DNA from: Candidatus Thorarchaeota archaeon
GTDB taxonomy: Archaea; Asgardarchaeota; Thorarchaeia; Thorarchaeales; Thorarchaeaceae
Length of the DNA: 64,000 nucleotides
NCBI GenBank assembly: GCA_029855935.1
Contig: JAGSHN010000027.1
Coordinates: forward strand, 121,348 to 185,347
Direction of reading: 5' to 3'
Shown here: piece by piece, positions 47,256-47,429 of the stretch
Numbering within the stretch: the first letter of the stretch is position 1
Layout of the letters: every line of letters begins with the position of its first letter
Notes under the pieces: model-generated
Databases searched by the model: none
Told to the model about the DNA's origin: nothing
The model's input: only the letters and a program-made list of their open reading frames with translations
Position numbers and translations under genes: made by a program

Positions 47256-47429
47256 ATGACGGCAACGAACGTCTCATCCGACTTTCCGGACCTCCCGGAT
47301 CCTCTCCCTTGGGAGGCGATGCCAGAGACCCCAGAGCCAGTGACTCCGTGGGAGGCAATGCCTGATCTTCCAGACCCCCTCCCCTGGAAGGCAATGCCGG
47401 AGACCCCAGAGCCAGTGACTCCTTGGTGA
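47256..47429 (+). CDS. 57-aa multi-core Pro/Trp repeat peptide (precursor-like)
   Basis: MTATNVSSD-FPDLPDPLPW-EA-MPETPEPVTPW-EA-MPDLPDPLPW-KA-MPETPEPVTPW. The repeat copies differ by 10 synonymous and 1 non-synonymous changes. Confidence 0.8.
   Translation: MTATNVSSDFPDLPDPLPWEAMPETPEPVTPWEAMPDLPDPLPWKAMPETPEPVTPW
47286..47426 (+). repeat. Tandem duplication with 75-nt period
   Basis: 47286-47351 aligns with 47361-47426 codon for codon. Confidence 0.9.

Follow-up and report, generated by a model that had tools for sequence, protein, structure and literature searches.

A 57-codon open reading frame (ORF) was examined in a 64,000-nucleotide stretch of a Candidatus Thorarchaeota genome (contig JAGSHN010000027.1, positions 121,348 to 185,347; the whole stretch is called the window below) and, as judged from its codon substitutions, it is a real peptide gene under selection at the protein level. 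It lies just upstream of a gene for a 663-residue protein with a predicted Lrp-like fold, and the two together look like an undescribed peptide-and-partner module. The ORF occupies 47256-47429 (+), with the ATG at 47256 and the TGA at 47427-47429, and encodes 57 amino acids (aa): a nine-residue leader followed by four Pro-rich cores in the arrangement A-B-A-B, joined by the dipeptides EA, EA, and KA, with the stop directly after the last Trp (Table 1). The same architecture had been proposed in an earlier interpretation of the DNA made without database searches (the sequence-only reading), and the ORF translation agreed with it. Tandem Repeats Finder detected the array with a period of 36 to 39. 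When the two halves of the gene were aligned (2 x 23 codons), 10 synonymous codon differences and 2 nonsynonymous ones were counted, the latter in the first codon (F/M) and in the spacer (E/K); over the 22 codons considered in the sequence-only reading, our recount gave exactly its 10 synonymous and 1 nonsynonymous (E>K) differences. The 57-mer is 28% Pro, has a net charge of -10 and an isoelectric point (pI) of 4.05, and is probably disordered or polyproline-II-like. It contains no hydrophobic segment or signal peptide (maximum 9-residue Kyte-Doolittle hydropathy, -0.06). The pattern is well outside what chance would produce. When the whole 2.97-Mb genome was searched for short frames with at least three regularly spaced PW motifs, only the window ORF and one paralog were recovered, plus a chance match inside a 353-residue open frame.

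The strongest evidence for the gene came from this paralog, which is unlinked to the window gene (G000:C6:96877-97047, locus L002, where G000 is the genome of the window) and whose flanks do not align with the flanks in the window. Between the two genes, 21 of the 48 repeat codons differ and every one of the differences is synonymous, which gives a synonymous divergence (dS) of about 1.4 and a nonsynonymous divergence (dN) of 0. The three spacers are conserved equally to the cores. Conversely, the leader shows 4 nonsynonymous and 2 synonymous codon differences over its 9 codons (dN/dS of about 0.8) and, by this comparison, evolves freely. The sequence-only reading had claimed that the amino acid sequence and not the DNA is conserved, and had named homologs with dN/dS near 1 among the findings that would speak against its interpretation; the first point is borne out by the counts above, and the repeat region gave a dN of 0. 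The three repeats of the ortholog on JGI contig Ga0180300_10116953 (L140) likewise differ among themselves only synonymously, and of the variable sites among seven close orthologs of the micro-ORF, 4 fall in the first, 2 in the second, and 9 in the third codon position. The four-core gene of the window, in which saturated synonymous divergence is combined with zero amino acid change, is the clearest single proof of function as a peptide. That all cores and spacers are conserved between the paralogs speaks for a functional product and for an advantage gained from copy number.

We also considered that the array might be a noncoding tandem repeat, or that the selected frame might be the 91-aa ORF on the opposite strand (47222-47497). 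The antisense frame that shares the wobble position is open too, and only 4 amino acid differences separate the paralogs in it. The plus frame, however, has 0 differences in the same six-frame comparison, and the other four frames have 20 to 21. In addition, an ATG with a Shine-Dalgarno (SD)-like GTGA and a stop at or near the Trp recur in 58 to 74 otherwise unrelated loci, compared to 0 on the reverse strand. With these sequence comparisons in hand, a noncoding or antisense origin is hardly credible and has effectively been refuted already.

The peptide ORF lies 107 nucleotides (nt) upstream of the partner ATG (47537), on the same strand. An orthologous peptide gene followed by an ortholog of the 663-aa protein was present both on contig C1 of a second genome, G003, and on the JGI contig, and orthologs follow a peptide gene at at least 70 other loci; the G003 ortholog is 38% identical to the 663-aa protein over its full length. 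A sequence search found homologs of the partner in 75 of the GTDB family's 86 genomes; each of the 16 genera was represented, and 2 to 3 copies were frequent. A profile search found them in 75 of 85 family genomes compared to 1 of 314 other genomes of the phylum. On this distribution, the partner protein is restricted to one family of the Asgard phylum. The upstream DNA of 99 partner loci was then screened with a strict filter, which required a micro-ORF on the same strand, at most 400 nt upstream, with an in-frame ATG and ending in P..[DE].PW plus at most 3 more residues, and with a lenient filter, which also allowed F or Y as well as longer tails. A micro-ORF passed the strict filter at 58 of 98 family loci, while the reverse strand gave 0 and shuffled sequences led to an expectation of 0.05. 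The lenient filter was passed at 74 of the 99 loci, with the stop 76 to 288 nt (mostly 110 to 230 nt) before the partner start. Linkage to the downstream helix-turn-helix (HTH) gene, which had been put forward as a check in the sequence-only reading, therefore holds across the family. As read from these ORFs, the family-wide micro-gene encodes a Pro-rich peptide whose acidic-Pro-Trp motif either forms the C terminus or is followed by no more than three residues. In a maximum-likelihood tree of 28 partners, the peptide classes follow the partner clades, multi-core forms occur in at least four separate clades, and single genomes hold 2 to 3 cassettes with differing peptides.

The sole partner homolog outside the family (G138:C292:116-2113) is located on a 2-kb contig in a metagenome-assembled genome with 8% contamination, and probably reflects mis-binning of that contig, not a transfer.

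The number of cores varies among close relatives of the window gene, as the sequence-only reading had suggested checking. One homolog in G003 (contig C3) has the leader MHSNNNISRQ followed by FMPGRPEPDTPW and three more QFMPGRPEPDTPW units, for a total of four cores with identical 39-bp DNA repeat units; the homolog on contig C1 of the same genome is a 45-aa ORF that ends in a lone core (...SQMPGRPEPDTPW-stop); the homolog on the JGI contig has three copies of EIMPFEPEPVTPW; and G001 and G004 have single or degenerate forms of the peptide. Core number among the same-genus homologs, including that on the JGI contig, is thus 1, 3, or 4. The motif at the genus level reads PEPxTPW, and the spacers of the homologs are QF, EI, N, GL/GV/NL, or TF instead of EA. 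In the family as a whole, most micro-ORFs have 12 to 40 codons and one core, often only 12 to 15 codons without a leader, and are typified by MVPKGPSRPEPW, MRPSLEPSLPEPW, and MKSKHPGRPFYPEPW; a sub-family of 36 to 38 aa has a conserved N-terminal part of about 25 residues (..RFNE..K.TESPFDY..LKC..P.EPW). Between 0 and 6 residues follow the terminal Trp, with several members carrying 2 to 6. We counted about 19 loci at which the cores, made of different repeat units, stand in tandem arrays of 2, 3, 4, or more. The multi-core layout is a local, lineage-specific amplification, the usual number of cores in this gene being one, and the sequences place such amplification of different units (2, 3, 4, or more cores) independently in at least 4 clades.

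Two orthologous three-core genes, L181 (G087:C10) and L183 (G085:C22), encode KPFTPPPEPF x3 and KPFTPPPEPW x3, respectively, so that the terminal aromatic residue has changed in all three cores together; the pattern indicates concerted evolution or a re-amplification that followed the change.

General searches recovered few relatives of the peptide. A word-indexed search of 5.8 billion proteins returned the query alone or the query and the JGI protein, and a full hidden Markov model search of 1.84 billion representatives returned one true relative (P0002) and eight other matches, all of them low-complexity repeat proteins. A metagenome scan found nothing beyond the JGI contig, a protein-pattern scan of genome contigs gave no match, and a DNA pattern scan (ATGCC..CCNTGG x2) gave chance matches only among the matches listed. 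Loci L003 and L144 and the matches in G027 and G038 were rejected as chance matches.

The 663-aa protein had no Pfam match at an E value of ≤0.1 and no NCBIfam match at ≤1, and its structure was predicted with AlphaFold2 from 28 homologs (predicted local distance difference test score, 86; predicted template modeling score, 0.84). In this model, residues 319-655 matched NirDL (4czc), a fused tandem Lrp/AsnC protein, with a Foldseek E value of 1.9e-5 and, in VIA-align, a Z score of 10.7 over 270 aligned residues (root mean square deviation, 5.4 Å), and residues 486-630 matched single Lrp/AsnC proteins (PH0061, PF0864, and LrpC) with Z of about 5. As modeled, the C-terminal half of the partner is a fused tandem Lrp/AsnC module composed of winged helix-turn-helix (wHTH) and RAM domains. 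The assignment is by fold only, and the Lrp/AsnC sequence models (Pfam AsnC_trans_reg and HTH_AsnC-type) did not match; neighbors in the ESM-Atlas that carry HTH_24 or HTH_AsnC-type domains scored only 0.76 to 0.84 and are leads only. The first RAM-like domain contains an invariant ..RWPHxH.. loop. The N-terminal 320 residues form one beta-rich and one helical part, for which a structural search returned nothing above noise (best Z, 5.5); faint Foldseek rows for the substrate-binding domain of DnaK and the peptide-binding beta domain of GID4 had probabilities of 0.2 or less and were not used. No tetratricopeptide repeat (TPR) proteins were among the structural matches of the model. With a pI of 9.3 the protein is basic, and it lacks transmembrane segments. 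A 646-aa protein encoded at 58291-60231 (+), which also has no Pfam match, was rejected as a second partner, as it has no BLASTP similarity to the 663-aa protein (best E value, 0.35).

The family-wide pairing, together with the co-diversification of peptide class and partner clade, points to the neighbor as the partner of the peptide. We therefore favor, at evenly balanced confidence, a reading in which the peptide would act in trans as a ligand or partner of the adjacent Lrp-like protein, with each core as one binding unit. The peptide would bind either at the RAM pseudo-dimer interface or to the novel N-terminal domain of the 663-aa protein and switch its output, which would probably be the transcription of neighboring genes such as the convergent gene for a giant surface protein. 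Lrp-type proteins switch on ligands bound at their RAM interfaces and form higher oligomers, so a four-core chain could engage several sites of such an oligomer at once or, if cleaved, could yield four ligands per translation. While the gene and its genomic pairing were read directly from the genomes, we infer from them the binding and the regulatory output, along with any processing or export. Several observations weigh against this reading. Leader-peptide attenuators classically have the same layout, a short ORF with a hairpin and U-run right behind it. A self-encoded ligand that stays inside the cell would be of unclear benefit unless exported, and no exporter is evident. NirDL, the closest structural match, is an enzyme and not a regulator, so DNA binding by the partner is an assumption. 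About 25 to 40% of the partner loci, mostly the most divergent paralogs, have no recognizable micro-ORF, and no RNA sequencing run containing the locus was found, the only match being a hydrothermal-vent DNA metagenome, which is probably where this DNA came from.

If the gene acted in cis, the Pro-rich ORF ending in ...PW-stop would stall or pace the ribosome, for example according to Pro-tRNA, Trp, or aIF5A status, a function as leader peptide or attenuator that we consider unlikely; the position of the ribosome over the stop would then decide between termination at the hairpin and U-run and read-through into the 663-aa gene, by the logic of TnaC or MgtL, which appears similarly improbable. 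The short ORF does lie on the same strand 107 nt upstream of the partner and is followed by a hairpin and a T7 run; of the 5 genus copies, 4 have a similar hairpin and U-run behind the stop, with unrelated stem sequences; at 45 of the 74 family loci the spacer contains a T run of at least 5; and the invariant C-terminal ...EPW near the stop recalls sequence-specific arrest peptides. An arrest peptide, however, needs only its last 10 to 20 residues, whereas here all four cores and the spacers are strictly conserved at a dS of about 1.4, and the repeated, independent amplification of different units would bring no benefit to a stalling element. The tails of 0 to 6 residues after the Trp and the stop-to-hairpin distance of 0 to about 47 nt are unlike a fixed ribosome-hairpin geometry, and paralogous cassettes of one genome carry very different peptides despite being translated by the same ribosome. 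Copies that lie away from any partner gene (G000:C6 and G003:C3) argue for action in trans. The Pro-rich leader MgtL and the Trp-dependent TnaC are bacterial, and hairpin-dependent attenuation has, to our knowledge, not been established in archaea.

Unprocessed, as in the alternative named in the sequence-only reading, the 57-mer could instead serve as an array of linear motifs that binds some other protein, such as profilin or a reader of the SH3, WW, or GYF type in the Asgard cytoskeleton or trafficking machinery. Its composition and probable disorder, the joint conservation of spacers and cores, and the copies unlinked to the partner gene would all fit such a role; the family-wide pairing with a protein of about 670 aa points to the neighbor instead, peptide class has co-diversified with partner clade, and most members contain a single motif. 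We consider binding to a protein other than the neighbor quite unlikely. Cleavage into four Trp-terminated cores, with modification and/or export of the cores to serve as a signal or natural product, also seems improbable to us. The multi-core layout with 1, 3, or 4 cores among close relatives, the stop exactly after the Trp in most members, the conserved N-terminal region of about 25 residues in one sub-family, which could serve as a recognition leader, and an Opp-type oligopeptide ATP-binding cassette (ABC) transporter 7 to 13 kb upstream are consistent with such a precursor. Against it stand the lack of a signal peptide or hydrophobic segment, the lack of a recognizable modifying enzyme, protease, or exporter adjoining the copies whose neighbors were scanned, the unconstrained leader of the window gene and the 12 to 15 leaderless codons of most members, and the 2 to 6 residues that several members carry after the Trp. 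A common cleavage site is lacking, as the lineages do not share their spacers, yet within this lineage the spacers are conserved like the cores. The likeness to alpha-factor and other Kex2-processed repeat proteins, cyanobactins, and other peptides synthesized ribosomally and modified post-translationally (RiPPs) that was put forward in the sequence-only reading drew only on the multi-core layout and on the EA spacers and found no support: the leader lacks the conservation of a RiPP leader (4 nonsynonymous differences in 9 codons, compared to 0 in the 48 repeat codons), and neither a secretion signal nor a dibasic site (KR or RR) before each repeat was found.

Among known systems, the trans-acting ligand reading may, in its logic, place the module closest to the RRNPP cassettes of Bacillota and their phages (Rgg/SHP, ComR/ComS-XIP, PlcR/PapR, Rap/Phr, and AimR/AimP). 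As in these cassettes, a tiny ORF adjoins the gene of a cytoplasmic protein with an HTH domain that is a candidate receptor (58 of 98 loci by the strict filter), the peptide is conserved, and presumably active, at its C-terminal end (some XIPs are also Trp dependent), and several paralogous cassettes per genome have diversified peptides whose class is inherited with the receptor clade. The module differs in that the partner is modeled as a tandem Lrp/AsnC (RAM) protein with a novel N-terminal domain and lacks the TPR fold of the receptors, in that its hydrophilic, Pro-rich peptides lack any signal or export sequence and no linked exporter or processing protease was found, in its archaeal host, in its common multi-core tandem arrays, and in that binding is a prediction here. 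The partner itself is alike in fold to NirDL/AhbAB (siroheme decarboxylase, PDB 4czc) over residues 319-655 and to the Lrp/AsnC feast/famine regulators over residues 486-630; unlike them, it is extended at its N terminus by a region of about 320 aa and matches none of the Lrp/AsnC models of Pfam or NCBIfam. The known ligands of these proteins are amino acids or siroheme and not gene-encoded peptides. Yeast alpha-factor (KR-EAEA spacers), the cyanobactin precursor PatE, and multi-copy Phr pro-peptides share with the window gene the tandem short cores within one ORF and the varying copy number, and alpha-factor also shares the EA dipeptide spacers, which are replaced in the homologs; they differ from the family, which has mostly one core, no signal peptide, no conserved cleavage site, and no enzymes of the PatA/PatG or Kex2/Ste13 type. 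TnaC and the MgtL leader of Salmonella mgtA are alike in having a short Pro-rich or Trp-containing ORF followed by a hairpin and U-run before the regulated gene, and unlike in the features weighed above: conservation of all repeats, unlinked copies, variable stop-to-hairpin distance, and an archaeal host.

We know of no gene-encoded peptide-receptor system described in archaea, and none like this module in Asgard archaea was found in the literature searched. The module is family-wide, consists of a mostly unannotated micro-gene and a lineage-specific protein of Lrp fold, is present in 2 to 3 diversified copies per genome, and often lies near a giant surface protein gene. If the peptide is a ligand, gene-encoded peptides would join the ligands of Lrp/AsnC regulators, an entire class of functional genes would prove to be overlooked by gene callers, and experiments on regulation, and possibly on communication, in Thorarchaeota-like Asgard archaea would come within reach, as short synthetic peptides and soluble protein would suffice. 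A more far-reaching possibility, and a rather doubtful one, is that the P...EPW micropeptides are diffusible signals between cells that would be released (perhaps cleaved), imported by Opp, and sensed by the Lrp-like proteins as receptors that control giant adhesin-like surface proteins. If true, this would be the first gene-encoded peptide system for quorum sensing or kin recognition in archaea, evolved independently of RRNPP and in the lineage closest to eukaryotes.

Table 1. Features of the peptide gene and its surroundings, in window coordinates
Feature	Position	Strand	Remarks
Conserved block CTATTAAGCTCCAC, possible TATA-like promoter element	47120-47133	+	Near-identical in L140 (CTAATAAGCTCCAC), where flanks have otherwise diverged
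Perfect 10-nt inverted repeat TCACGCTCTC / GAGAGCGTGA, 9 nt apart	47222-47250	+	Ends 5 nt before the ATG; contains SD-like GTGA (47247-47250)
N-terminal leader MTATNVSSD, nine codons	47256-47282	+	ORF translation
Core A1, FPDLPDPLPW	47283-47312	+	Protein identical in paralog L002 despite synonymous changes
Spacer EA	47313-47318	+	Before core B1
Core B1, MPETPEPVTPW	47319-47351	+	B type MPxxPEPxTPW common to G003, G001, and the JGI contig
Spacer EA	47352-47357	+	Before core A2
Core A2, MPDLPDPLPW	47358-47387	+	ORF translation
Spacer KA	47388-47393	+	Before core B2
Core B2, MPETPEPVTPW, plus TGA stop	47394-47429	+	Stop right after Trp common to most family members
Hairpin (arms 47438-47454 and 47460-47476), then T7 run (47486-47492)	47438-47492	+	Terminator-like end of the peptide unit
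663-aa partner protein	47537-49528	+	Novel N-terminal region of about 320 aa and C-terminal tandem Lrp/AsnC-like (wHTH + RAM) pseudo-dimer
2671-aa surface protein, convergent with partner gene	49537-57552	-	Prenyltransferase-type alpha-alpha toroid head, Ig-like repeats

The flanks of the window ORF suggest that the micro-gene forms its own short transcription unit, which we would delimit by the SD-like GTGA and the terminator-like end. A GTGA or GGTGA is found 5 to 10 nt before the ATG of micro-ORFs in other genera too. The conserved block upstream is a possible promoter element of the peptide gene, as proposed from its near-identity in the JGI ortholog. At the same place relative to the ATG as the inverted repeat of the window, this ortholog (L140, 455-483) has a 9-nt perfect inverted repeat, TCACGTCAC / GTGACGTGA; the outer TCACG...CGTGA is kept between the two and the inner bases have changed on both arms, a pattern that could reflect either an operator that a dimeric DNA-binding protein recognizes or an RNA hairpin in which the SD-like GTGA is hidden. 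A further palindrome lies at 47086-47105. An Rfam search of the window gave no match, and a CACGTG-type motif upstream of the peptide gene was not enriched in the window.

Synteny with the G003:C1 locus and the JGI contig includes a rubrerythrin gene and a 394-aa ORF upstream and the convergent giant gene downstream; the 394-aa ORF may encode a flavodiiron protein, an identification made by size only. The head of the 2671-aa protein matched Pfam Prenyltrans above the cut-off (E value, 4.5e-17), and Big_3_5 and Filamin matched below it. Homologs of its C-terminal 500 aa are convergent to the partner gene at 13 of 28 loci from several genera, including that of the window, and the giant surface-protein gene is thus probably part of the same conserved neighborhood and a plausible regulatory target of the partner. 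Scans of neighboring genes with Pfam and NCBIfam (window 34-61 kb, the unlinked paralog, and the G003 locus) revealed no modifying enzyme, protease, or exporter, and specifically no radical-SAM, YcaO, lanthipeptide, or PatA/G-type enzyme or cytoplasmic prenyltransferase adjoining the copies scanned; the only enzyme-like features near the window gene are the Prenyltrans toroid domain of the giant protein and the NirDL-like fold of the partner. These scans and the hydropathy profile match the statement in the sequence-only reading that there is no signal peptide and no recognizable RiPP enzyme next to the gene. The probable Asgard host that it had named is likewise supported: genes for 25 Ras-family GTPases and for an actin of eukaryote-like type (443 bits) are present in the genome and identify the host as an Asgard archaeon.

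The Opp/Dpp-type oligopeptide ABC transporter mentioned above is located at 34466-40220 of the window and is complete, with an ATPase that has an oligo_HPY domain, two permeases, and a family-5 solute-binding protein. Importers of the Opp type take up signaling peptides in RRNPP systems, but archaea that ferment peptides would be expected to have them as well. A 60-aa stand-alone winged-helix protein with weak matches to TrmB, MarR, and DUF7343 is encoded just upstream of the peptide gene, at 46860-47042 (+); the syntenic G003 locus has neither this gene nor the CN-hydrolase gene.

The surroundings of the two unlinked copies were also inspected. The copy on G000:C6 (L002; region L149, 4506-8660) is followed by a gene for a 152-aa MarR-like wHTH protein whose C-terminal half is hydrophobic, and a gene for an M50 peptidase (site-2 protease family) lies two genes off on the other strand. 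Near the copy on G003:C3, an FAD-binding, Trp-halogenase-like gene was considered as a Trp-modifying partner and rejected because it is not conserved at other loci; it also scores better as FAD_binding_3 and matches the catalytic domain of geranylgeranyl reductase. This copy, with its four identical repeats, lies between the genes for a leucine-rich-repeat protein and a GNAT acetyltransferase (region L146, 4594-9504) and adjoins a restriction-modification pair consisting of an Eco57I-type methylase and a BsuBI/PstI endonuclease, and the presence of these genes next to it suggests a variable or mobile region.

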